Part shown: piece by piece, positions 400 to 24,000 of the stretch
How the letters are laid out: each line of letters opens with the position of its first letter
Position numbering within the stretch: position 1 is the first letter of the stretch
Source of the DNA: an uncultured Methanosarcinales archaeon
GTDB taxonomy: Archaea; Halobacteriota; Methanosarcinia; Methanosarcinales; Methanosarcinaceae
NCBI GenBank assembly: GCA_964434965.1
Contig: CAYSWX010000023.1
Location: forward strand, 1 to 24,000
Direction: 5' to 3'
DNA length: 24,000 bases
Notes under the pieces: model-generated
The model's input: the letters and a program-made list of their open reading frames with translations, nothing else
The model's database searches: none
Told to the model about the DNA's origin: nothing
Program-made: the position numbers and the translations under genes

Positions 400-1857
400 T
401 TAACCTGATTTATATTTTCCGTTTTCTCCGGCAAACGGGATTTTTTCACCTGTTAAAGGTAATGTGAATGCGAAGGTGCTGCCTTTTCCCACCTCACTTT
501 CCATCCATATTTTCCCGCCGTGCAGTTCCACAAGTTTCTGGACAATAGTAAGGCCAAGTCCGCTTCCTTTGTACGTGTGTGTCTCCGTGTTTTCTATCTG
601 GCTAAAAGGCTTAAATAGCTTCTTCTGGTCCTCTGGCGATATCCCAATACCGCTATCCTTTACGGAGATTTCGGTAAAGTCCCCTATAATTTTGGCCCTT
701 ATGGTCACTGAACCTTCACAGGGCGTGAACTTTATTGCGTTGCTAATAAGGTTATAGAGGATCTCTTTGAATTTTTCCAGGTCTGCGTGGAGAACCCTTA
801 AATTTGGGTCAAGATCTTTATCAAGATTGATATTCTTTTTTGATGCCAGAGGAAGGAGTGTTGTCACAACTTCACAAATGGACTCCGGTACAGAGATCTC
901 TGTGTATCGCAGCTCCGTCTTTCCTGCTTCGATCCTCGATAGGTCAAGGAGATTATTAATTAGGGACAGCTGGTGTTTTCCGTTCACGGAAATATTAGTA
1001 ATATACTTTATTTGCTTTTCATTCAAAGGTCCGATTACCTGCTCAAGCAAAAAATCCGAATACCCAATAATAGAGTTAAGCGGTGTCCTCAATTCATGGC
1101 TCACGTTAGCCAGAAACTTGGACTTGGTGTTGTTTGCCTCTTCAGCCGCCTTTTTGGCTCGGACCATCATCTCTTCTGCCCTTATCTGCTCTGTTATATC
1201 AATCCCCATGCCTCCGTATAATGTAATTCCTTCACCCAGATTGATAGGAAACCTTATGGTGCGGTAGAAAAGTTCGTTTCCCTCCAGGTCTACAAGAGAT
1301 TCTGTCCTGGTGATGCTGTCTTTTTCTTCAGATACCGCATCCCTGATCCACTCCTCTTTCCTGAAGTGTTCCTTCAGATAATTATTCGAATATACAATAA
1401 GTCCCCTGTCATCTTTTATGAATGCGGTCGCGGGCAAATTGTCCATAAATGTGGTAAATTGCTTTTTGCTCTGCTGAAGTTTTTTGGAGTATTTTTTAAG
1501 TTCTCTATTCGTCTGCTCCAGTTCTTCAGCATATCTCTGAAGTTCTTTCCGGCTTTTTTCTGAAGCTTCGATCCATTCTCTGAAGGCAAGGCCATATGCC
1601 ATCATTATTTCCATCAGAGGAGTAGATAGATAACGGATAGACTCGAGAAGTTTTGTGTCTGGATAAGTTTCTGAAAGGCAAGCTATTGCGTCCTCATGGA
1701 TCTCTGCAATGTCCTCAGGGGGTATGTTTTCCTGGACCATCTCCCGCCCGAGTTCACCTATTTCAAAAAGGTACTTTTCATCGGGGGAATCAACATAATT
1801 TTTTAGAAGGACATTATATCTTTGTTTGAACTTTTGAATTGGCATAGGGCAAATCAT
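400..1857 (-). CDS. Sensor histidine kinase with RsbU-N-like (RsbT-docking) N-terminal domain, coiled coil, PAS-like segment, HisKA and HATPase_c
   Basis: 485-aa ORF. The N-terminus ([10 protein letters not shown]...[14 protein letters not shown]...[10 protein letters not shown]) aligns by eye with the N-terminal domain of Bacillus RsbU. Coiled coil [26 protein letters not shown]-box [19 protein letters not shown]-box [12 protein letters not shown]-boxes DSGIGI and GSGLGL. ATGA start/stop overlap (1854-1857) with the upstream phosphatase gene. Confidence 0.9.
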
Positions 1858-2423
1858 CCTTTATATATTAGAATTGCAGCATCGTCTGTTTCTTTTGCAT
1901 AGTCTCTAAGTATTCGATTTGCCAGTTTTTGCACGTCCATGCAGAAGGACTCTTCATAACTGGAAACTTCGAGGCTTTCTGAGATGCCGTCAGTCCACAT
2001 AAGCACAAGATCGCCATCAGTCAGGTCTATAGTATTTATATTTAATTTCCGGTAACCTCCCCCAATGATACCCCAATCGCTACTCAAATTTATTTTTTTT
2101 CTACCCCATATTGCTACATTGATATTTCCTATCCCTCCATGAGTCAGTGTAGCATTTTTTTTATCCACAATGACTATGCTCATTGCCGTCCCCCTTGTGT
2201 ATTTTATCCCCCGGTCACACTTCTCAAATATATGGGGCAATGGTTCACAAAGGTTACGGGATACGCAGTCGATTGCTGCTATTGCAGCCTTTTCAGCTTC
2301 AATTCCGTGCCCAAGACCATCAACCATACATAGTATGATACTATCCTCGTTTTCCCACCATCTACACTGATCCCCACAATAAGGGTCATTTAAGAAAGAA
2401 TGAGTTGCAGTACTAATATTCAT
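1854..2423 (-). CDS. PP2C/SpoIIE-type serine phosphatase, RsbX-like
   Basis: 189-aa ORF, the size of RsbX. Motifs CGDQ...[15 protein letters not shown]...MWTDGISE are typical of the SpoIIE/PP2C fold. Sits directly downstream of the RsbR/S/T-like genes. Confidence 0.8.
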
Positions 2424-2469
2424 GTTTCATCCTATTCAGGCCATATAATTCTACCTGATGGTCTGCCTG

Positions 2470-2580
2470 TTATTCCAGATCCTTGACAACTGGCTCTGGT
2501 TCTGGACATTTCTTTCCATAGGATCCATGCTGATCTTTCCCGCAGTTCAGCTCAACAATTAAATGGCTTCTCTTTTCCAT
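2470..2580 (-). CDS. Possible 36-aa small ORF in the rsbT-like/rsbX-like spacer
   Basis: My own translation of the minus strand: MEKRSHLIVELNCGKDQHGSYGKKCPEPEPVVKDLE, then a stop. It is below the ORF-track size cutoff. I recognise no homology and see no clear SD. Confidence 0.2.
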   Translation of the reverse strand: MEKRSHLIVELNCGKDQHGSYGKKCPEPEPVVKDLE

Positions 2581-2588
2581 AATGAATT

Positions 2589-2612
2589 TTTTATGTTGGG
2601 TTTTATGTTGGG
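2589..2612. repeat. Perfect 12-nt tandem duplication TTTTATGTTGGG x2
   Basis: Read directly: 2589-2600 and 2601-2612 are identical and are followed by TTTTTT. Lies just 3' of the rsbT-like stop on the minus-strand transcript. Confidence 0.8.
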
Positions 2613-2631
2613 TTTTTTGCGCCACCTCAAA

Positions 2632-3030
2632 TTATTTCCGGCTCCTTTTGATTTCCATGGTAATTTTTGTATATCCTGGCTCTGATGCTATGTCAAAATT
2701 GTTTACAAGCCTTTTAGCTCCCGGAAGTCCTGCTCCCAGCCCGTTTCCCGTAGTGAACCCATCTTCCATGGCCAGGTTAAGATCTGCAATCCCTGGGCCG
2801 TAGTCTTCTACAACTACTTTAATAGCCATTTCCTTTTCATCCTGTTCATTATGAATGGAGCAGTTCCCTTCTCCTGCATATTTAAGAACATTCCGGGCCA
2901 GTTCGGAGATGGCAGTTGCCATACGTGTCTGATCTGCCGAACCAAACCCCATCTCCTTCATAATATCCCTTGCTGTCTGCCTTGCAAACAGGAGATCACT
3001 CTCGGTTTTAATCGGTATTTTCTTATTCAT
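2632..3030 (-). CDS. RsbT-like serine protein kinase (anti-sigma-regulatory-factor type HATPase)
   Basis: 132 aa, collinear by eye with B. subtilis RsbT: AISELARNVLKYAGEG, EDYGPGI, MEDGFTTGNGLGAGLPGAKRL. Confidence 0.85.
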   Translation of the reverse strand: MNKKIPIKTESDLLFARQTARDIMKEMGFGSADQTRMATAISELARNVLKYAGEGNCSIHNEQDEKEMAIKVVVEDYGPGIADLNLAMEDGFTTGNGLGAGLPGAKRLVNNFDIASEPGYTKITMEIKRSRK

Positions 3031-3196
3031 TGATTATTCCCTCTTAGGTTATCCCCTCAGTAATCGGGTAGTTTCCATAATTTCCCCTGTCCATTATTCT
3101 ATCTGTTACTTTCTATCACTGCACTATCCGGGTGCTCTGGTACAGCTAACTATGGAATACATATCCTGAGGTAAGAGAAGTACAGTCTCCAACAGT

Positions 3197-3577
3197 TCAA
3201 CTTTGTAACGAGGTATGACTTCCTTTTTTTGAGTGGAGTATTTTATCAAGCCCCTTACCAAGGTTAAGTGCCGTTTGCACGCCTATGAGTTCTCGTCCCA
3301 TTTCAACAAGGGTTAGAGCAACCATAGGCTGCATTCCGCAGAGTACTACTTCTGTCCCCATAATTCGTGCCATATTTGCCGTCTCATTGATAACTCTCGC
3401 CATAAAAGAATCGACTATTTCCATACCCGTTATATCAATGAGGACCCCTATAGCTTCGGTTTTTTCAAGCATTTTCAGCATTTGAGACTGGAATTCAAGT
3501 ACCTCGTTGTCTGTAAGGTCCCCTGGTATCGAAGACAGCAAAACATCATTTACTTTCAGTATTGGAATCATTCCCAT
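3197..3577 (-). CDS. RsbS-like single STAS-domain protein
   Basis: 126 aa. IPILKV...VLIDITGMEIVDSFMARV...VVLCGMQPMVALTLVEMG matches RsbS by eye. Ser57 in the DSF motif corresponds to the phospho-acceptor Ser59 of B. subtilis RsbS. TAATG overlap with the upstream gene. Confidence 0.8.
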   Translation of the reverse strand: MGMIPILKVNDVLLSSIPGDLTDNEVLEFQSQMLKMLEKTEAIGVLIDITGMEIVDSFMARVINETANMARIMGTEVVLCGMQPMVALTLVEMGRELIGVQTALNLGKGLDKILHSKKGSHTSLQS

Positions 3578-4383
3578 TACTCCTCACATGATACCACTTT
3601 CATTCCCATCAGGCTGATGGCTTTTGAGATCCCTGTTTTCAGTGAACCACAGGTGGTGATATTGCTCAGGTCTATTCCGAGAGTTACCAGAGTCTGTGAG
3701 ACCTCAGGGCTGAAACCGGTGAGAATCGTCTTTGCCCCAAGCATTTTTGCTGCATTTACTGCCTTGATTATATGCCTTGCAACTGCAGTGTCTACTACCG
3801 GCACTCCTGTAAGGTCCAGAATCGCCAGTTCAGCTTCATTTTCCACAATTGAGTTTAGCAGGTTTTCCATAATATGCTGTGCACGTGCTGTATCGATGGC
3901 TCCTACCAGAGGCAGCAACAGGATCCCATCCCATATTTTGATCACAGGTGTTGCAAGCTCCAGAATTGTCTGGCTCTGTACACGAAGGTCATTTTCCATC
4001 TTCACTCTGTTAGTAATATCTGCAATATATTCAAGCCCTCCAACAATGTTTCCATCCTCATCTTTTAAAGGCACAGCCGTTACCTCTATGTTGATCGTTT
4101 CTCCATGGTCCGAAATTTCATAACGACCTGTATATTTTTTGTCGTTGTCTATTGCTTGTTTGATTCCGCATGTGGATGCACTTACGCACCTTGATTCAAG
4201 AACTTTGTAACATTTTTTTCCTTTAACTTCCTCAAATTTTCTCCCAAATAAATCGCAACCTGCGGGGTTGATAAACAAAATATTAAAATCCTTATCCACA
4301 ATCATAATAGGAATTGGAATTGATTCAAGAAGAGCGTTTTCCATATCAAATGACCCTATGTTATATTTGCCTGTAGCGTTCAT
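3577..4383 (-). CDS. RsbR-like stressosome sensor: N-terminal PAS domain plus C-terminal STAS
   Basis: 268 aa. PAS-like N-terminus (IMIVDKDFNILFINPAGCDLFGRKFEEVKGK...). The C-terminus ILDLTGVPVVDTAVARHIIKAVNAAKMLGAKTILTGFSPEVSQTLVTLGIDL matches the RsbR STAS domain, including the VVDT threonine. SD-like GGGGA upstream. Confidence 0.8.
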   Translation of the reverse strand: MNATGKYNIGSFDMENALLESIPIPIMIVDKDFNILFINPAGCDLFGRKFEEVKGKKCYKVLESRCVSASTCGIKQAIDNDKKYTGRYEISDHGETINIEVTAVPLKDEDGNIVGGLEYIADITNRVKMENDLRVQSQTILELATPVIKIWDGILLLPLVGAIDTARAQHIMENLLNSIVENEAELAILDLTGVPVVDTAVARHIIKAVNAAKMLGAKTILTGFSPEVSQTLVTLGIDLSNITTCGSLKTGISKAISLMGMKVVSCEE

Positions 4384-12691: not shown

Positions 12692-14620
12692 TCAAACATG
12701 TAGTCCCCGCATCCCCACTCCCATTACAAGCAGGTTTGTTTCCATAGGAGGGTGGTTCCAGCCGTCAGGAGAGATAATTTTCTTCTCTATAGAAACCTCA
12801 ACCTGGTTTCCGCTGAGTCCGCAGTCTTTCATATAATCTTCAATAAGTTTTTTTCCAATTTCGGTTGCAGCACTCAGGGCTTCTGTGTATGCATCGAACC
12901 TCAACCTGTTGCCGGGTGCAAAAACAAGGAAATCTCTCTCTGGAGACATCAGACTTGCAGGCCTGATTAAAATTTCTACTCTTTTGATGCCTTTTCCTGC
13001 AAGGGCTCCGACTGCATTTCCTACCTCAGCATGTTCGGGAACGAGAATTTCAGCATCTATAAACTCCTCCAGTTCTTTCCTGTATGCACGTACAGGGCCT
13101 CCGAGCAGGATAACAGGGACTCTCAGCTTGAACTTTGCAGGATAATTTCCGTCAAGGATTTTTTCAACGGCTGTGTACGGTACTCCCTGAAGGATATATG
13201 AGAGGAGGTGAAGTGCCATATTCCTTGCAACTCTCCTTTTTACAGCAGTGCAGAACTCATGGGGTGTCATACGCATGAGCCTCGCAAGCCTTTCAGCTCC
13301 TATTCTGGAAGCTTCTTCGTTCCAGGCTGTATATTCCCCGAGCACATGCAAAGCATCGGTTGGAGTAAAGCCAATTGCCTGAACAAGACGTTTTTTGATA
13401 AGGGAGTCCAGGGTTTGAGGGTGGAGGTCCTTTCTTATGAGGGCTTTTATCTCATGCACGGAAACCGGTTCGTCTACAATTGCGCCAAGAACTTCCGCTT
13501 CAACTTTACTCAACTCACCTGCTGGGTAGCCTGACCTAACGAAAAATTTCGTGGGCTGGATATTTTCTTCCAGGCCTTCTCTGAGAGGCATGGGCGTTCT
13601 ATTCAGGTTATTTAGGAAACCTGGATACTGGACTGCAGCGACTGCAAGGGGTATAACCCGTCGAGGCCCGAGGAAGAGTTCCCTATCTACTGTCCATATA
13701 TGGCTGTCTCCGCCTGTAGCTGTTGTCGCCATTCTTATCGCCCGCACCCGCGTCTTCCATCCGCCCACAACTGCTCCTTCATCGCTCAGGTCAGGAACTC
13801 CCATACAGATCGAGGAAATATCCGTACTCGTTCCCCCAACGTCTACAACTGCACAGGTTTGCAGCCCTGAGAGATAAGAGGCTCCTACAAGGCTTGCTGC
13901 AGGGCCTGAAAAGATCGTTTCTATCGGCTTTTGCAGGGCATCTCTTATCCCTATCACCGAACCGTCGCATTTGAGCATAAGAAGCCTTGCATTAATTCCT
14001 CTTCCTGTCATATCTGCAATAATGGATTTCACAAACTGCCTGGTTATGGGAATCAGCTGGGCATTCAGGAAAGCTGTTACCGTCCTCTCGTAAGCTCCAA
14101 GTTCCTGCGAGAGTTCGTGTCCGCAAACCGCAGGCAGCCCTGTAAGCTTCAGTATTCTGTCCTTTACTTTAAGCTCGTGTTCAGGGTTGCGTGTACTGAA
14201 ATAAGAAGATATGGCAAAAGCCGATACTTTGTCCTTTACAAGCAGGGCGAATTTTTCGATGGCTTCCAGGTCAAGAGGAGATGCTTCTTCTCCATTATGG
14301 TTATGCCCTCCTCTGGCAAAGAGAACATGCCCTGTTGGCAGTTCCTTTTCAAGCGGGTGGTCCCCTATGAGGATCAGGGCTACGGGAAAACCGGTTCCTT
14401 CAAGTATGGTATTTGTGGAAAGAGTGGTGGAGACAGATACCAGTTTTACGTTTTCAATGTACTCCGGATTAAGCCCGTCAATTGCCTTTTTGATGCCGCC
14501 AAGAGGGTCAGGATAGGTGGTCAGGGCTTTATTTGAGTCTACAATTTCCCCATCCGAGTCCCTTACGAGCACCGCATCTGTGTAAGTTCCACCAGCGTCA
14601 ATTCCAAGGCTGTAGTGCAT
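12692..14620 (-). CDS. Hydantoinase/oxoprolinase-family (ASKHA-fold) protein
   Basis: N-terminal GIDAGGTYTDAVLV and a second VVDVGGTSTD phosphate-binding motif. 642 aa. Confidence 0.8.
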   Translation of the reverse strand: MHYSLGIDAGGTYTDAVLVRDSDGEIVDSNKALTTYPDPLGGIKKAIDGLNPEYIENVKLVSVSTTLSTNTILEGTGFPVALILIGDHPLEKELPTGHVLFARGGHNHNGEEASPLDLEAIEKFALLVKDKVSAFAISSYFSTRNPEHELKVKDRILKLTGLPAVCGHELSQELGAYERTVTAFLNAQLIPITRQFVKSIIADMTGRGINARLLMLKCDGSVIGIRDALQKPIETIFSGPAASLVGASYLSGLQTCAVVDVGGTSTDISSICMGVPDLSDEGAVVGGWKTRVRAIRMATTATGGDSHIWTVDRELFLGPRRVIPLAVAAVQYPGFLNNLNRTPMPLREGLEENIQPTKFFVRSGYPAGELSKVEAEVLGAIVDEPVSVHEIKALIRKDLHPQTLDSLIKKRLVQAIGFTPTDALHVLGEYTAWNEEASRIGAERLARLMRMTPHEFCTAVKRRVARNMALHLLSYILQGVPYTAVEKILDGNYPAKFKLRVPVILLGGPVRAYRKELEEFIDAEILVPEHAEVGNAVGALAGKGIKRVEILIRPASLMSPERDFLVFAPGNRLRFDAYTEALSAATEIGKKLIEDYMKDCGLSGNQVEVSIEKKIISPDGWNHPPMETNLLVMGVGMRGLHV

Positions 14621-14730: not shown

Positions 14731-15059
14731 AACGAAGTAAAATGGTGTGATAATGCAAAATAATATCTGAAATTATTAAATATATATCTATTTCAATAAG
14801 ATTTGAAATGGTTAAAATATAGTTTGAGCTGATCAAACCGAATGTGATAGAGAGTCCATAACCTAACTTTAAAAATTACTTGCAGTTGTTCAGAACGGTA
14901 GATGAAATCCAGAGAACAGGGGCAGGCGTGGACCAGTAAATCAGGGGGCACTCTTTTAGGGCAAACCATTAATTACTTTCTTTTCCAAAAAATAGAGAAA
15001 TAAAAAAGTAGAGAATAGCCTTCAATTAGATGCTAAGTTTAAGAGAAACTTAAAAGGAA

Positions 15060-15770
15060 TTGACTGTTATGACTCCAGCAAAACCCGCTCAGAATTCCAT
15101 TCCCCATCTCCCTGAGGACTACGATGCCCGGATATCTCTTATTCTCCCTTACTACTCGTCTTTTCATCAGGAAATTATCAACTTCGTCAAATCCCTGCCT
15201 TCAAGCCCGAAGGTATGGATGGATACCGGATGTGGGACAGGCTCTCTGATTAATAAGGCAATTGAAGAATTTCCCTATACGAAATTCCTTTTACTTGACC
15301 CTTCGGAAGGAATGCTGGAGCAGGCAAAGCAAAAACTATCGGCTTACCCTTCCGCAAAGGTACAGTTCCTGAAAGCTTCCCCTACTCAGGAATTTTCTCA
15401 GGAATTGGAAGAAAAGCCGGACGTTATCACTGCTATACAGTGCCATCACTACCTCAGCCGCGAAGGGCGTGCCAGAGCTGCCAGTAAGTGTTATAATTTA
15501 CTAAAAGAAGATGGAATTTACATTACCTTTGAGAACATCAGGCCGCTAACAAAAGAAGGTGTGACCATAGGAAAAAGATACTGGGGAGACTTTCAATCAA
15601 CGCATGGGAGGAACGACGAAGAGATACAGAAGTATCTTGAGCGGTTTGATACTGAGTATTTCCCAATAACTGTTGAAGAACATCTGAAACTGTTGAGAGA
15701 GACAGGGTTCAGGGCTGTGGAGTTATTCTGGTACTCTTATATGCAGGCTGGGTTTTACTGCATTAAATAA
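15060..15770 (+). CDS. Class I SAM-dependent methyltransferase
   Basis: Motif I WMDTGCGTGS, with an acidic residue at LLLDPS. The ORF-track start is a TTG, and the ATG at 15069 is an alternative. Confidence 0.8.
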   Translation: MTVMTPAKPAQNSIPHLPEDYDARISLILPYYSSFHQEIINFVKSLPSSPKVWMDTGCGTGSLINKAIEEFPYTKFLLLDPSEGMLEQAKQKLSAYPSAKVQFLKASPTQEFSQELEEKPDVITAIQCHHYLSREGRARAASKCYNLLKEDGIYITFENIRPLTKEGVTIGKRYWGDFQSTHGRNDEEIQKYLERFDTEYFPITVEEHLKLLRETGFRAVELFWYSYMQAGFYCIK

Positions 15771-18759: not shown

Positions 18760-18779
18760 ATATCAATTATTTTTGATAC
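18760..18779. promoter_or_regulatory. Operator-like inverted repeat ATATCAA-TTATTT-TTGATAc overlapping a TTTATATC TATA-like box
   Basis: Read directly. Near-identical to the repeat at 20389-20408. Lies upstream of the small ORF and first AhpD-like gene. Confidence 0.4.
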
Positions 18780-18868: not shown

Positions 18869-19021
18869 ATGGAAAATAAAAAGGAGATTTTGCCAGAGGA
18901 AGAGAGTTCAGAAAAGGATAAACTGGACGATGATGAAGACCTTCTATATACACATAAGCCCGAGTCCCGCGGCAATGAAATGCGCTGGAACACCAGTTTG
19001 TGCAGAAAACCCGGCCGCTGA
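18869..19021 (+). CDS. Possible 50-aa acidic small ORF
   Basis: My own translation: MENKKEILPEEESSEKDKLDDDEDLLYTHKPESRGNEMRWNTSLCRKPGR. AAGGAG lies 8 nt upstream. The competing antisense ORF (18853-19044) is Ser-rich and low complexity. No homology recognised. Confidence 0.25.
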   Translation: MENKKEILPEEESSEKDKLDDDEDLLYTHKPESRGNEMRWNTSLCRKPGR

Positions 19022-19096: not shown

Positions 19097-19444
19097 GTGT
19101 CATTTTTAAACGACATGTTACCTGAAACCGCTGAAGCTTTCGGACAGATGAGGAATTCCATTTTCAAGGATGGCTTCCTTGATGTCAAAACAAAAGAGCT
19201 AATCGCAATTGCCTCTGCGGTACTTATGCGCTGCCAGTTCTGTGTTGATGCGCACTCTCAAAGGGCAGTTGCTGCCGGGGCTGCAAAGGAAGAAATTGCC
19301 GAAGCAATTGCCGTTGCCATGTTCGTTGCTGCCGGGTCGCAGATTGGGTGGGCGAACGTGTATGGTGAAAGCATATATGATAAAATCTTTAAAAAGGATA
19401 AAGACGAAGAGGACTCCTGCTGTTGCTGTGGAGAGAGAAAGTAA
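19097..19444 (+). CDS. AhpD/carboxymuconolactone-decarboxylase-like CxxC protein with a C-terminal CCCC tail (copy 1)
   Basis: KELIAIASAVLMRCQFCVDAHSQRAVAAGA is the CMD/AhpD CxxC..H signature. The C-terminus reads DSCCCCGERK. GTG start with GGAGGA 6 nt upstream, and the N-terminus is collinear with copy 2. Confidence 0.85.
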   Translation: MSFLNDMLPETAEAFGQMRNSIFKDGFLDVKTKELIAIASAVLMRCQFCVDAHSQRAVAAGAAKEEIAEAIAVAMFVAAGSQIGWANVYGESIYDKIFKKDKDEEDSCCCCGERK

Positions 19445-19499: not shown

Positions 19500-19859
19500 T
19501 TATTCCAGTTTTTTGTTTTGTACCTGAGATATTGTCTTTAAAATTCCTGCAAATTCAGGGTTCAGCCTGTAAAACCGCCATTTTGAGCTGTTGTAGGCTT
19601 CGATGATCCCGCAGTTTTTCAAAATTGACAGGTGATGGGAAACAAGGTTCTGCCTCTCGTTTAACTTGAATATCAGTTCGCAGACACAGTGGTCTCTCTG
19701 GGAGAGAAAGTAGGTAATCTTCAATCGAATCGGATGTCCGAGAGCGCTGAATATCTCACTGGCTTTTTTGATGTCATTGTCCAGAAAATCTATTTCCTGA
19801 ATCATTTTCTCTTCCCATTCTTTCTTTTTCTCGGGGTCTGCAGGGCAGCAATAACTCAT
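19500..19859 (-). CDS. arsR: ArsR/SmtB-family metalloregulator with a CVC As(III)-type site
   Basis: The HTH region LGHPIRLKITYFLSQRDHCVCELIFKLNERQNLVSHHLSILKNCGII contains the CVC motif in helix 3. There is also an additional vicinal Cys pair at the N-terminus (MSYCCP). Confidence 0.85.
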   Translation of the reverse strand: MSYCCPADPEKKKEWEEKMIQEIDFLDNDIKKASEIFSALGHPIRLKITYFLSQRDHCVCELIFKLNERQNLVSHHLSILKNCGIIEAYNSSKWRFYRLNPEFAGILKTISQVQNKKLE

Positions 19860-19985: not shown

Positions 19986-20300
19986 TCAATTAAATTCAAT
20001 ACTGATACTCCTTGCTTTTTTTGCCAGTGACTTTGCCATAAAACCGCTTTCCAATTTGCAGAGATTAAGTATTGCACAGGGCACAAGGCAGTTTGAGGAA
20101 CACTGTGCTTCCTGTGCTTTATCGATTACATAGTTCTTCTTGATGTCCAGAGTTTCCATCATGGGAATTTGCATATGTGAAAACTTTTTTATTTTTTCAC
20201 ATGGGGTTTCAATATCTACAATAATCTTATCTCCTTTCATGCTCCCCTTGATTTTGTGGGTAAAACCGCAAATGGTAGAACTTACTATAATTTCGCTCAA
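19986..20300 (-). CDS. Small six-cysteine protein of unknown function (copy 1, 104 aa)
   Basis: Intact ORF, about 79% identical (82/104 by manual alignment) to the ORF at 23033-23353. Conserved Cys residues are at 11, 34, 67, 71, 75 and 81 (C-x3-C-x3-C-x5-C). It lies upstream of arsR on the same strand. Confidence 0.7.
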   Translation of the reverse strand: MSEIIVSSTICGFTHKIKGSMKGDKIIVDIETPCEKIKKFSHMQIPMMETLDIKKNYVIDKAQEAQCSSNCLVPCAILNLCKLESGFMAKSLAKKARSISIEFN

Positions 20301-20388: not shown

Positions 20389-20408
20389 ATATCAATTCTC
20401 TTTGATAT
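20389..20408. promoter_or_regulatory. Operator-like perfect inverted repeat ATATCAA-TTCTCT-TTGATAT in a divergent promoter region
   Basis: Read directly. Lies between the six-Cys gene/arsR operon (minus strand) and AhpD-like copy 2 (plus strand). Second occurrence of the motif seen at 18760-18779. Confidence 0.45.
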
Positions 20409-20461: not shown

Positions 20462-20812
20462 ATGCCATTCATAAACGAAATACTGCCTGATACCGCTGAA
20501 GCATTCGGAAAACTGAGAGATTCTATCTTCCAGGGTGGAGAGCTTGACCGCAAGACCAAGGAACTCATAGCCATTGCCTCTTCTGTCCTTATGCGCTGCC
20601 AGTTCTGTGTTGATACGCACTCCCAGAGAGCTGTTGCTGCCGGGGCTAGCAAAAAAGAAATTGCAGAGGCTATTGCCATTGCTATGTTTATAGCCGGAGG
20701 CTCTCAGCTCGGTTGGACAAATGTTTATGGCAAGAGCGTTTATGACATCATCTTTGGAGAGAAAAAGCCTGAGGAGTCCGAAAAAGAGAAAGGTTGCTGT
20801 TGTGAAAACTGA
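20462..20812 (+). CDS. AhpD/CMD-like CxxC protein with a C-terminal CCC tail (copy 2)
   Basis: About 75% identical to copy 1 over 98 aa by manual alignment. Has the same MRCQFCVDTHSQRAVAAGA core and ends KGCCCEN. I place the start at ATG 20462 (GGAGGA 5 nt upstream, collinear with copy 1) rather than the ORF-track start at 20402. Confidence 0.85.
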   Translation: MPFINEILPDTAEAFGKLRDSIFQGGELDRKTKELIAIASSVLMRCQFCVDTHSQRAVAAGASKKEIAEAIAIAMFIAGGSQLGWTNVYGKSVYDIIFGEKKPEESEKEKGCCCEN

Positions 20813-20950: not shown

Positions 20951-22003
20951 TCAAAACCTGAATTTTTCCCTGTTCCTTTCCATAATCTTCACAAGGGAAA
21001 GCATAACAGGCACTTCCACAAGCACTCCCACAACTGTTGCTAGAGCAGCTCCTGATTCCATCCCGAATAGAATTAAGGCTACTGCCACTGCCAGTTCAAA
21101 GAAATTGCTGGCGCCGATAAAGGTTGAAGGTGCAGCTTCCATGTAAGGGATTTTCAGGTATTTTGCTCCTGCATAACCGATCCAGAAGATCAGGTAAGTC
21201 TGAATCACCAGAGGGATTGCGATCAGGAGAATGTGCAGGGGATAATTTATGATGTTTTTTCCCTGGAATATAAAAATCAGGACCAGAGTAATTAAGAGCC
21301 CGGCAGGAGTGATCCACTGTGTTTTTTGAATGAGTTTGTTTTCAAACCAGTCAATGCCTTTTTTCCTTATCACCACCTGTCTTGTAAGCACAGCAAGGCC
21401 GAGGGGAATTGCAACATAAAAAAGGACAGAAACGAAGATTGTCATAAGAGGGACAGGAAAGTCAGTTGTGACTCCGAGGAGAAACTTTCCTAGTGGGGCA
21501 AAAAGGACCAGGATGATAAGGTCATTTACTGAGACCTGAATCAGAGCATAATTAATATTCGCTCTTGCAAGATAAGTCCAGACGAGTACCATAGCCGTAC
21601 AGGGGGCAATCCCAAGCAGGATCATGCCTGCGATATACTGAGCCTGAAGGTCAGCATTGATCAGGGATTCAAAGAGCACGCGCATAAAGAGCCATGCAAT
21701 AAATGCCATTGTAAAGGGCTTGATTACCCAGTTTATGACGAGAGTCAGAAGGAGGGGCTTTAGATTTGCTTCAACGTTCAGAATTTCTTCAAAGTTGATT
21801 TTAAGCATGATAGGGTACATCATGATCAGGAGCACAACAGCTACGGGAATTGAAACATTTGCAATCTCAATCCCTCCAAGAGTGTCCGCAAAACCTGGAA
21901 AAATATAGCCTATTGCAGTCCCGAGTATTATACAGACCGCAACCCAGATAGAGAGATATTTACTGAAGAAATCTAGTTCCCTTTCTTCCTCCTCTTCAGG
22001 CAT
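20951..22003 (-). CDS. acr3: ACR3-family arsenite efflux carrier
   Basis: 350 aa and polytopic. MYPIMLKI, LLGIAPCTAMVLVW (the conserved transport Cys), GASNFFELAVAVA and VGVLVEVPVML are characteristic ACR3 motifs. Confidence 0.9.
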   Translation of the reverse strand: MPEEEEERELDFFSKYLSIWVAVCIILGTAIGYIFPGFADTLGGIEIANVSIPVAVVLLIMMYPIMLKINFEEILNVEANLKPLLLTLVINWVIKPFTMAFIAWLFMRVLFESLINADLQAQYIAGMILLGIAPCTAMVLVWTYLARANINYALIQVSVNDLIILVLFAPLGKFLLGVTTDFPVPLMTIFVSVLFYVAIPLGLAVLTRQVVIRKKGIDWFENKLIQKTQWITPAGLLITLVLIFIFQGKNIINYPLHILLIAIPLVIQTYLIFWIGYAGAKYLKIPYMEAAPSTFIGASNFFELAVAVALILFGMESGAALATVVGVLVEVPVMLSLVKIMERNREKFRF

Positions 22004-22883
22004 ATTCCTCCCCTTCGTCCCACTCTTCTCCGTCGAACTCTTTGCTTGCAGGGATGATCATCACAGGCTTTGCGGTTTTCCGGAGTACGTTTTCTGCCGT
22101 ACTCCCGAGCAGTATGTCCATTAAATCTCCTTTCCCACGGGTGGTCAGCATAATCAGGGTGATATCTTCTATACTGGCAAGCTTAACAATTTCATCGGAT
22201 GGGATGCCCTCAACGACAAGGCACTGGCTTTTTATTCCTTCAACCCGTTCCTTTATTTTCCTGAGCTTTTCTTTTGCCTCTTCTCTCTGTTCATCCAGAA
22301 GGTCCATATCTTTTATATCATCTATCACATGGATGAAAAGAACCTCTTTTATGACCTCTTTAAGCTCCTGAAGCTGTTCGACCGCTTTCATTGACCCTTT
22401 CGAAAAATCCAGAGGCATAAGGATCCGCGAGAAAGTTGCCCTGCACGCCTTCTCATAAACTTCTTTTCCTTCTTTCAGAGCATCATACTTTTCGACCAGC
22501 AGCATTTTTTTTGAACTGCGTGCTATATATTCCGTAGTCCTTCCGAGAAATTTCCCTTTTATAAATCCTTCAGTGGTGGCTCCCATTATTATAGCATCAA
22601 CATCTTTTCTGTCGGCTATTTCCGAAATTGTCCTCTTTACATCTCCTACTATTACCAGGGGTTCGGTTTCAAGTTCAAGTTCGCTTGCAAAGCCTGTGTA
22701 GTCCTCGATTCTTTTCTCTGCATTTCGTTCAAACATAGGGGTAAGCCCCTGGCTTTTATGTATGTCCACCACATGCAGCAAAATAACCTTCTTCAAGCCT
22801 GCGTTTTTAAGTTCCCCTATGCAGCCAAGCAAATCTTCCGTTTCGATAGAAAAATCCACAGGAACGAGTACTGTGCTTATCAT
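21996..22883 (-). CDS. Tandem universal stress protein (2x UspA domain)
   Basis: Two Usp-like halves begin VLVPVDFS... and ILMPLDFS..., and each ends with a G-x2-G-x9-GS-like ATP motif (TTRGKGDLMDILLGSTAENVLR). Its last 8 nt overlap the acr3 start. Confidence 0.85.
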   Translation of the reverse strand: MISTVLVPVDFSIETEDLLGCIGELKNAGLKKVILLHVVDIHKSQGLTPMFERNAEKRIEDYTGFASELELETEPLVIVGDVKRTISEIADRKDVDAIIMGATTEGFIKGKFLGRTTEYIARSSKKMLLVEKYDALKEGKEVYEKACRATFSRILMPLDFSKGSMKAVEQLQELKEVIKEVLFIHVIDDIKDMDLLDEQREEAKEKLRKIKERVEGIKSQCLVVEGIPSDEIVKLASIEDITLIMLTTRGKGDLMDILLGSTAENVLRKTAKPVMIIPASKEFDGEEWDEGEEYA

Positions 22884-23032
22884 CTGCTGTCAGCAGCCCC
22901 CTTTTATCTTCTATTTGCTTTTTCAGGTCTTACTTTTCAGCAACCTGATCTTTCTCAAGCCCATAATTATGTCTTTATCAGTAATAGCTTGATGCACTGA
23001 AGTTAAAAAAGAAGAGGTGTTTTTCACCCAGC

Positions 23033-23353
23033 TCATACTTCATTAAAATCAATACTGAGGCTTCCTGCTTTTTTTGCCAGTGACTTTGCGATAAATCCGC
23101 TTTCCAGCTTGCAGAGGTTAAGCACCCCACAGGGCACCAGGCAGTTTGAGCAGCATTTTGCTTCTTTTGCCCTGTCTATCACATAGTTGTCTTTGATATC
23201 CATGGTTTCCATCATGGGAACTTCCATATGCGAGATTTGCTTTATTTTTTCACACGGAGTTTCGATATCCACAATGATTTTTCCACCTTTCATGCTTCCA
23301 CAAATTTTGTGGGTAAAGTCGCATATTGTAGAGTTGACGGTAATTTCAGCCAT
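23033..23353 (-). CDS. Small six-cysteine protein of unknown function (copy 2, 106 aa)
   Basis: Paralog of 19986-20300 with the same six Cys positions plus two extra (Cys18, Cys68). Confidence 0.7.
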   Translation of the reverse strand: MAEITVNSTICDFTHKICGSMKGGKIIVDIETPCEKIKQISHMEVPMMETMDIKDNYVIDRAKEAKCCSNCLVPCGVLNLCKLESGFIAKSLAKKAGSLSIDFNEV

Positions 23354-23405
23354 ATGCCCACCTCAATTCATTTTTGAATTCAATTTTCAGGTATCTGAAG
23401 ATATT

Positions 23406-23439
23406 AATTAATCCTTACCATGGTTAATAATTAATCCTT
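23406..23439. repeat. Direct repeat AATTAATCCTT x2 flanking the palindrome ACCATGGT
   Basis: Read directly: 23406-23416 and 23429-23439, with ACCATGGT at 23417-23424. Lies in the spacer between the thioredoxin-fold gene and six-Cys copy 2. Confidence 0.7.
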
Positions 23440-23499
23440 CTCCAAAGATGGAAATTTGTATTAATTCTGAATATTTTGGGTCTGGCAGGTTCAAGATGC

Positions 23500-23730
23500 T
23501 CATTCAATCCATTTTCGGATTTCCTTTTCATCCGGAACCTTGCCTGCAAGCTTAACTTCGCCATCAACCACAACTGCAGGTGTGACCATTACGCCGTAGT
23601 TCAGGATCGTTTCAATGTCCTCCACTTTGACGATTTCAGCTTCAACACCATTTTGCTTCAATACTTTTTCAATTGTTTCTTTTGTTTTCTTACATTTTGA
23701 ACAACCAGTTCCAAGAATTTCGATTTTCAT
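23500..23730 (-). CDS. Small thioredoxin-fold redox-active disulfide protein (CxxC)
   Basis: 76 aa. MKIEILGTGCSKCKKT...VMVTPAVVVDGEVKLAGKVP matches the pattern of the 'small redox-active disulfide protein 2' family, which commonly sits next to DUF318-type permeases. Confidence 0.8.
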   Translation of the reverse strand: MKIEILGTGCSKCKKTKETIEKVLKQNGVEAEIVKVEDIETILNYGVMVTPAVVVDGEVKLAGKVPDEKEIRKWIE

Positions 23731-23831: not shown

Positions 23832-24000
23832 TCATAGAATTATGTTAAATAGATATCCCGTAATAATTATGGATATACTCACAATTATCACAAAGGCAGC
23901 TATCAGTTCGTTTTTAAGCACTTTTTTCAAGATTATCATTTCTGGAAGAGAAAGCGCAGTTACTCCCATAAGGAAGGCAAGAGCAGTGCCTACTGGAAGT
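23832..24000 (-). CDS. C-terminal end of a DUF318/ArsP-like permease (partial, continues beyond the window)
   Basis: My own minus-strand translation: ...LPVGTALAFLMGVTALSLPEMIILKKVLKNELIAAFVIIVSISIIITGYLFNIIL, then a stop. The hydrophobic SLPEMIILKKV segment resembles the C-terminus of the predicted-permease (DUF318/ArsP) family. Only 55 residues are visible. Confidence 0.55.
   Translation of the reverse strand, partial: LPVGTALAFLMGVTALSLPEMIILKKVLKNELIAAFVIIVSISIIITGYLFNIIL

Follow-up and report, generated by a model that had tools for sequence, protein, structure and literature searches.

The iron–sulfur (Fe–S) scaffold protein IscU is recognized by an Asp two residues after the first of its conserved cysteines (Cys-1), a His before the third (Cys-3) and an LPPVK co-chaperone motif. 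Methanosarcina and related archaea contribute in a major way to arsenic methylation and to methane production in rice paddies and sediments, and their arsenic islands carry several small cysteine-rich genes without a known role. In the anaerobic bacterium Pseudodesulfovibrio mercurii ND132, an operon of the order ArsR5–ArsP–ArsE (PF13192)–DGC (PF08859) is up-regulated by arsenic (bioRxiv 10.1101/2022.10.17.512643). This study concerns a stretch of 24 000 nucleotides from an uncultured Methanosarcinales archaeon (contig CAYSWX010000023.1, positions 1–24 000), hereafter the window, and within its arsenic island two paralogous genes on the minus strand, copy 1 (19986–20300) and copy 2 (23033–23353), which encode small proteins of the Pfam family DUF6951 (PF22263). 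An IscU-like predicted fold, three invariant cysteines and a regulon defined by a palindrome turn this nameless domain into a testable hypothesis. New here are the assignment of the IscU-like fold, which is supported but not proven by the models described below, the three-cysteine core, a module of ArsP, Thioredoxin_3 (Trx3) and DUF6951 that is found across orders, and the operator motif.

Both proteins are, by profile comparison, clear members of DUF6951, a family catalogued without an assigned function. Copy 1 scored 79.7 bits against PF22263 (E = 2.3e-22; residues 3–94, model positions 2–99) and copy 2 scored 75.2 bits (E = 5.8e-21; residues 3–95, model positions 2–100), the gathering threshold being 27 bits and the model length 101 positions. 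An earlier note on this DNA, which had placed the two in an unrecognised family and called for a profile search, is thereby corrected on the first point; no characterized family unrelated to metals was matched. All 47 diverse relatives tested also match PF22263, and the name given to relatives by NCBI is 'DUF6951 family protein'. A search of both proteins against NCBIfam returned no match, searches of the PDB with a single sequence and with the family profile returned only chance matches to ribosomal protein L33 (E > 0.2), and a literature search by the DUF6951 name and by protein accessions found no paper in the library searched. The family is rare, with 142 clusters at E ≤ 1e-3 in an exhaustive profile search among 1.84 billion representatives, and methanogens predominate. 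The bulk of the members belong to the Methanosarcinaceae (Methanosarcina, Methanolobus, Methanohalophilus, Methanomethylovorans and Methanococcoides), and further named members come from Methanomassiliicoccales, Methanomethylophilaceae, Methanohalarchaeum, Archaeoglobales and Hadesarchaea. Members 70–76% identical to those of Methanosarcina also occur on contigs labelled Desulfobacterales, delta-proteobacterium and Alphaproteobacteria (L048; L050/L051, the contig of L096; P0043). The neighbouring genes on these contigs look archaeal, for example a gene of the HVO_A0114 helix–turn–helix type, and the bins have probably been mislabelled, rather than the gene having been transferred to bacteria.

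Both copies encode single-domain proteins of about 105 residues, and both open reading frames (ORFs) are real at the coordinates of the earlier note, which had left their strand unstated. Copy 1 (104 residues) starts at a TTG codon, 4 nt 5' of which lies a Shine–Dalgarno-like site, AAGGTGA, that is unchanged across eight orthologous regions; in one public gene call (P0077) the protein begins at an internal ATG and has only 84 residues. Copy 2 (106 residues) starts at an ATG preceded by GAGGTG. The two proteins are identical at 82 of 104 positions in a BLASTP alignment (79%, E = 8e-63), in agreement with the value of about 79% previously obtained by hand. By the Nei–Gojobori method, the proportions of synonymous (pS) and nonsynonymous (pN) differences are 0.64 and 0.11, with a synonymous distance (dS) of about 1.46 and a ratio of nonsynonymous to synonymous distance (dN/dS) of 0.08, and the differences at the first, second and third codon positions number 15, 9 and 43. 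The high dS and the low dN/dS indicate that the duplication is old and that, as the earlier note had held, selection acts on both copies, which on this comparison are paralogs under strong purifying selection. The same values (dS of about 1.5, dN/dS of 0.08) exclude both a recent duplication and a pseudogene.

The cysteines common to the two copies are C11, C34, C67, C71, C75 and C81, to which copy 2 adds C18 and C68. All six were previously described as invariant, which is true of the two copies; family-wide, only three of them are. Among 116 representatives at ≤60% identity, C11, C34 and C71 are kept in 115–116, no other cysteine is universal, and exactly three cysteines are present in 22. 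C67, C75 and C81 each occur in only about 22–26% of these representatives, and C75 varies even within the Methanosarcinaceae, so that a six-cysteine site built on the cluster C67-x3-C71-x3-C75-x5-C81 is not upheld. The members from Methanosarcinaceae keep C11, H15, C34, C71 and C81 without exception and C67 nearly so. The residues H15, H42, C67 and C81 co-occur and are specific to this clade, a co-occurrence that is confounded by shared ancestry. Other well conserved positions are P74 (107 of 116), G86 (99) and E84 (92), and three positions N-terminal to C71 about half of the representatives have a His or a Cys. A fourth conserved ligand was sought across the 116 representatives and none was found: E84 falls short in its frequency and comes 13 residues later than C71 along the helix, and a His at Cys+2 or Cys+4 occurs in only 40. 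A reading as a ferredoxin-type or metallothionein-type protein was also rejected, there being no CxxCxxC motif and the protein being a well folded domain with few conserved cysteines.

The fold was predicted with AlphaFold2 for copy 2 (predicted local distance difference test, pLDDT, 89.3; predicted template-modelling score, pTM, 0.82) and for a member from Methanomassiliicoccales about 25% identical to it (pLDDT 93.4, pTM 0.86). Both models share an architecture of three antiparallel strands followed by helices. When the first model was compared with the PDB using Foldseek, the NifU-like N-terminal domain 5uft ranked first (E = 0.8, template-modelling score, TM, 0.49). With the second model, about 20 of the top 50 matches were IscU/ISCU, NifU-N, SufU, SufE or CsdE, and the probability reached 0.94, with TM values of 0.50–0.55 and a root-mean-square deviation of 3.6–4.5 Å over about 100 of 109 residues. 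Because two independent models converge on one small superfamily, DUF6951 is assigned an IscU/SufE-like fold, an assignment that is supported by the models but not proven, and for which the support from sequence is marginal. Pfam NifU_N (PF01592) was sought in the 47 members with E up to 10 without a match, and an IscU hidden Markov model run with the filters off gave DUF6951 at most 7 bits. In hhalign, DUF6951 scored 18.3–22.5 against an IscU alignment, compared with 14.5–16.3 for reversed controls and a maximum of 17.0 for 40 column shuffles, and C11 and C34 were paired with Cys-1 and Cys-2 of IscU. The spacing of the three invariant cysteines is 23 and 37 residues, against 25 and 44 in the archaeal NifU_N seed. 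In the models, C11 belongs to the loop that joins strands 1 and 2, C34 closes strand 3 and C71 opens the long helix; from the order of the strands we infer that C11 and C34 would lie at the same edge of the sheet, with C71 at the helix N-terminus, as in IscU.

The regulatory setting of the two genes was approached by aligning the region between copy 1 and the divergent CMD2 gene with seven orthologous regions, and a palindrome, ATATCAA-N6-TTGATAT, was found, the arms of which are invariant and the spacer of which is free across the eight species, with an adjoining TATA-like box. In the window, three sites occur where 0.23 would be expected. The perfect copy (20389–20408), which we presume to be an operator of the ArsR family, lies between copy 1 and CMD2, immediately upstream of the former. 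A site with one mismatch (18760–18779) lies 90 nt upstream of a small ORF (18869–19021, plus strand), an arrangement that is also seen in L007, L009 and L042, and a site with two mismatches (14790–14809) lies between a hydantoinase-A-like gene (12692–14620, minus strand) and an S-adenosylmethionine methyltransferase gene (15060–15770, plus strand), homologs of which recur near ars islands elsewhere. Across 77 genome loci, the palindrome core was found 55 times against 0.77 expected; 53 of the 55 have the 6-nt spacer and 51 are intergenic. It stands upstream of ArsP in 17 loci (at about 55–60 nt), of ArsR in nine (often as tandem sites 39 and 119 nt away), of CMD in five (at 55 nt in the orthologs), of DUF6951 in five, of a DsbD operon in five and of ArsM–MtrA in one, and another assembly of the window locus carries a copy 56 nt upstream of ArsP. 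By its positions, the palindrome marks a predicted Methanosarcina regulon that comprises the ArsP–Trx3–DGC, ArsR, CMD, ArsM–MtrA and DsbD operons, and we infer that the adjacent ArsR binds it. DUF6951 thus belongs to a palindrome-marked regulon of the ars type, lying in operons with ars genes and behind a common predicted operator.

The organization into transcripts can be suggested in part. The earlier note had proposed a two-gene operon of copy 1 and arsR, and this is plausible: DUF6951 is followed by ArsR in eight other loci, and an operator was sought in the 126-nt gap between the two genes and none was found, which, with the operator upstream of copy 1, fits co-transcription from an operator-controlled promoter. 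At the other end of the island, a hairpin followed by a run of six T (23005–23029, minus strand) was found by a consensus scan 4 nt past the stop codon of copy 2, and because of it the ArsP–Trx3–DUF6951 transcript may be separate from that of USP and Acr3; terminator-like sites are as numerous as expected by chance, and it is only the position that argues for this hairpin. A sigma-70 promoter scan is inapplicable to an archaeon.

The neighbourhoods of DUF6951 were surveyed by de novo clustering of the neighbour genes in the 77 loci. An ars or thiol-redox gene lies within three genes of 62 of the 86 DUF6951 genes of Methanosarcinaceae, and ArsR, ArsP, Acr3, ArsM or ArsC lies near 45 of them, which bears out the linkage to arsR and acr3 that had been noted in the window. 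The recurrent operon in this family consists of ArsR, ArsP_1, Thioredoxin_3, a DGC domain protein (PF08859) and DUF6951, and is often trailed by convergent MtrA-like and ArsM-like genes. Directly upstream of DUF6951 were found CMD (15 cases), DGC (14), another DUF6951 (nine), Trx3 (five) and Acr3 (four), and directly downstream ArsR (eight) and USP (seven). The linkage extends to the Methanomassiliicoccales, where the gene for a member of about 25% identity follows a divergent ArsR, ArsP_1, an 84-residue ORF and Thioredoxin_3. In a neighbour-joining tree, the proteins fall into clades that are specific to their context: copy 2 clusters with orthologs in the order Trx3, DUF6951, USP, Acr3, copy 1 clusters with orthologs whose gene is followed by ArsR, the members of a third clade are encoded after DGC, and those of a fourth have DUF2099, TetR and permease genes around them but no ars genes. 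Methanolobus loci (L052, L055 and L070) carry tandem arrays of three to four DUF6951 copies beside EamA–CMD, and in related Methanolobus loci genes for a heavy-metal P-type ATPase and cytochrome c stand at a distance of a few genes. The taxonomic spread had suggested a link to methyl-based methanogenesis, which was rejected, no methyltransferase or corrinoid gene being consistently adjacent.

The island of the window, of which the closest genome locus is that of a Methanosarcina metagenome-assembled genome with 96% identity, is transcribed on the minus strand in the order ArsP_1, Thioredoxin_3, DUF6951 copy 2, USP and Acr3, and elsewhere as copy 1 and then ArsR; the earlier note, which put ArsR after copy 1 and placed copy 2 between the Thioredoxin_3 gene and USP–Acr3, is thus correct on the neighbours. 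The ArsP_1 permease gene is cut by the window edge, and its C-terminal end (23835–24000, minus strand) is 80% identical in tblastn to residues 269–323 of the permease cluster; the locus with the whole 323-residue ArsP gene is present in three independent assemblies (L094). Immediately upstream of copy 2 is the Thioredoxin_3 gene (23500–23730, minus strand), of the MTH895/ArsE family with a CxxC motif (Pfam E = 2.6e-29; TIGR00412, 108 bits). Downstream of copy 2 lie a tandem universal stress protein (USP; 21996–22883, minus strand) with two Pfam Usp domains and, overlapping it by 8 nt, the ACR3 arsenite efflux transporter (20951–22003, minus strand; TIGR00832, 381 bits against a cut-off of 283 bits). 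The ArsR/SmtB-family regulator (19500–19859, minus strand; Pfam HTH_5, NCBIfam NF033788), 126 nt downstream of copy 1, has an N-terminal cysteine pair, C4 and C5, and a CVC motif in its putative metal-binding helix. We take this arrangement to resemble CadC-type sites, and the inducer could presumably be any soft metal or metalloid.

Two CMD/AhpD-like CxxC proteins (Pfam CMD) are encoded on the plus strand: CMD2 (20462–20812), divergent from copy 1 with a common operator and ending in a CCC tail, and its paralog CMD1 (19097–19444), ending in CCCC. The two genes are 74% identical in nucleotides, and both proteins have a CQFC motif besides the C-terminal poly-cysteine tail. Their best NCBIfam matches, which are below the cut-off, are arsenosugar-associated peroxidase-like proteins and ArsM–AhpD fusion selenoproteins. 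The small ORF between the second operator-like site and CMD1 (18869–19021) encodes 50 residues, is acidic and has no Pfam match; a small ORF stands at the matching position, 5' of CMD1, in the same three loci that share its upstream palindrome (L007, L009 and L042). Trx3 and copy 2 are separated by 146 nt, in which the direct repeat AAGGATTAATTA occurs twice (about 23400–23440, minus strand). Because a DGC gene occupies that position in related species, the gap may be the remnant of a lost DGC gene; in sister species a DGC gene is directly upstream of DUF6951. Two metallophosphoesterase genes flank a second, stand-alone gene with a DGC domain (PF08859; 11439–11870, plus strand), at a distance of 8 kb from the ars island. 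At its left end (400–4383, minus strand), the window carries a partner-switching module, unusual in archaea and without connection to the DUF6951 genes, made up of an RsbU_N histidine kinase, a SpoIIE/PP2C phosphatase, an anti-sigma-like HATPase, and STAS and PAS-STAS proteins.

Whether the cysteines hold an Fe–S cluster or a trigonal As(III)–thiolate site, as the earlier note had asked of the set of six, is still the right question; the set of six falls away, and the question has become sharper because there are exactly three invariant cysteines on an IscU-like predicted fold. The reading that we put forward, tentatively and with the chances somewhat against it, is that of a cytosolic three-thiolate protein that binds As(III) or methyl-As(III), or else a metal, so as to buffer it or hand it on. 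In it, C11, C34 and C71 would form one thiolate site where IscU holds its cluster or zinc, and this site, in an arsenic-regulated setting, would capture the metalloid as a three-sulfur complex. The protein would buffer the metalloid or deliver it to the exporters ArsP and Acr3, and the adjoining CxxC proteins, Trx3 and CMD, would hold its thiols reduced. The adjacent ArsR would occupy the palindrome until As(III) releases it, the residues H15, H42, C67 and C81 of the Methanosarcinaceae may make a second site, and DUF6951 would correspond in function to the ArsD chaperone while having an unrelated fold. A broader form of this proposal, in which DUF6951 represents a new class of thiol-based metalloid chaperone on the IscU scaffold fold with which methanogenic archaea take up As(III) or methyl-As(III) on three cysteines and carry it to ArsP and Acr3, with a single ArsR operator, the mark of a Methanosarcina arsenic regulon, governing it together with a dozen other cysteine-rich genes, is rather doubtful.

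Several points weigh against arsenic binding on an IscU-like fold. Every Foldseek E-value is non-significant alone (0.14 to 1), the hhalign probability against the IscU alignment is only 2–7%, and Cys-3 of IscU aligns there with the variable C75, one helical turn past the invariant C71. An IscU-like three-cysteine fold, if the models are right, suits iron–sulfur or zinc at least as naturally as arsenic. About one quarter of the DUF6951 copies in Methanosarcinaceae have no ars neighbours, no ArsA-like ATPase was found among the recurrent neighbours, and distant members in at least five lineages sit outside an ars context, which refutes a universal ars linkage for the whole family. Such members are found inside a dapA–dapB–asd operon for lysine biosynthesis, next to a HEAT-repeat gene or to methanogenesis-marker genes, near AglB and ThiI, after an Fe/B12-type importer operon of Peripla_BP_2, Radical_SAM, FecCD and ABC_tran (L098; P0126) and after a cysteine-rich protein with zf_CopZ and BFD-like [2Fe–2S] domains (L041). 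From such contexts, it is unlikely that the ancestral role of DUF6951 was specific to arsenic.

The last two of these contexts, with radical-SAM and Fe/B12-importer genes or the CopZ-zinc-finger/BFD-like protein nearby, would suit an Fe–S protein, the main rival reading, with a [2Fe–2S] or [4Fe–4S] cluster at the three-cysteine site. It would act either as an alternative scaffold or carrier that sustains the Fe–S supply while arsenite attacks the thiol-rich assembly proteins, or as a small redox partner that passes electrons to the neighbouring CxxC proteins. The nearest folds are Fe–S scaffolds, the three cysteines stand at IscU-like loop and helix-start positions with the similar spacing given above, and the clade-specific C67 and C75 could provide a fourth ligand. 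We nevertheless consider such a role somewhat less likely than arsenic binding, since none of the 47 members matches NifU_N, no fourth ligand is conserved, and the features by which IscU is recognized are absent: at Cys+2, where IscU has its Asp, the DUF6951 alignments show F, H, K or Y but no Asp, the residue that precedes C71 varies where IscU has its His, and there is no LPPVK motif. Nor was a cysteine desulfurase found among the recurrent neighbours in the 77 loci; the sole NifS nearby (L083) is 3 kb away and is paired with a NifU of its own that carries NifU_N. The strongest and widest linkage is instead to the module of efflux permease and thioredoxin under an ArsR-type operator. A persulfide carrier like SufE or SufU, passing on sulfane sulfur from a cysteine, for example to thio-arsenicals or for the repair of thiol proteins, would be consistent with the presence of SufE, CsdE and SufU among the fold matches and with DsrE/TusB-like small proteins, recognized by reading the sequences, in some ars islands (clusters c24 and c29); moreover, a bacterium with a related ArsP–ArsE–DGC operon produces what may be thio-arsenicals (bioRxiv 10.1101/2022.10.17.512643). 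The TM values for SufE (0.37–0.49) are, however, below those of the IscU matches, a relay requires one cysteine and not three invariant ones, and no desulfurase or rhodanese gene recurs beside DUF6951, so that this role appears improbable. There is also a small chance that the cysteines only hold the fold, in a structural zinc protein or in a regulatory adaptor that modulates, for example, ArsR or the permease. In crystals of IscU and SufU the same three cysteines carry zinc (as in the IscU–zinc structure 1q48), the co-occurring H15, H42, C67 and C81 match a Cys2His2 zinc site in composition, and the position of copy 1 immediately upstream of arsR is conserved. Against this, no sign of a DNA-binding or protein-interaction motif was seen, the co-occurrence of the extra residues may reflect no more than the shared ancestry already mentioned, and most copies of DUF6951 are not beside arsR.

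If the proposed arsenic chaperone exists, it would be a second solution to the task of ArsD, structurally unrelated to it and serving permeases without a known chaperone. If DUF6951 is an Fe–S protein, it would tie arsenic stress to iron–sulfur supply in methanogens. In either case, the operator motif is directly usable for the prediction of regulons in Methanosarcina genomes.

In conclusion, DUF6951 can be compared with three known systems. Like IscU/NifU-N (PF01592), SufU, SufE and CsdE, it is predicted to form a three-stranded antiparallel sheet followed by helices, and its three conserved cysteines would be placed as in IscU, one in the loop joining strands 1 and 2, one following strand 3 and one where the long C-terminal helix begins. 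Unlike IscU, it is about 25 residues shorter and has no N-terminal helix, as judged from secondary-structure strings, it has no sequence-profile match to PF01592, and it is encoded in ArsR-type operons and not with a cysteine desulfurase. Compared with ArsD (PF06953), DUF6951 would, if the arsenic-binding reading holds, likewise be a small cytosolic protein that is encoded in ars operons, has three cysteines as proposed ligands of As(III) and feeds an efflux system. ArsD, however, is thioredoxin-like with a Cys12–Cys13–Cys18 site, whereas the predicted fold of DUF6951 is not thioredoxin-like, and no match to PF06953 was found in the DUF6951 proteins, a weak ArsD-like match belonging to the neighbouring Trx3 gene. 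The partner of ArsD, ArsA, is not among the recurrent neighbours, and the exporters here are ArsP and Acr3. Finally, the order ArsR, ArsP_1, PF13192 thioredoxin-like protein and PF08859 DGC protein in the arsenic-induced operon of P. mercurii ND132 corresponds to the core of the Methanosarcina DUF6951 operons. The ND132 operon as described has no DUF6951, whereas the methanogens add it as the last gene, and in the lineage of the window, compared with the Methanosarcina operons, DGC has been lost and the unit has been joined to USP–Acr3.

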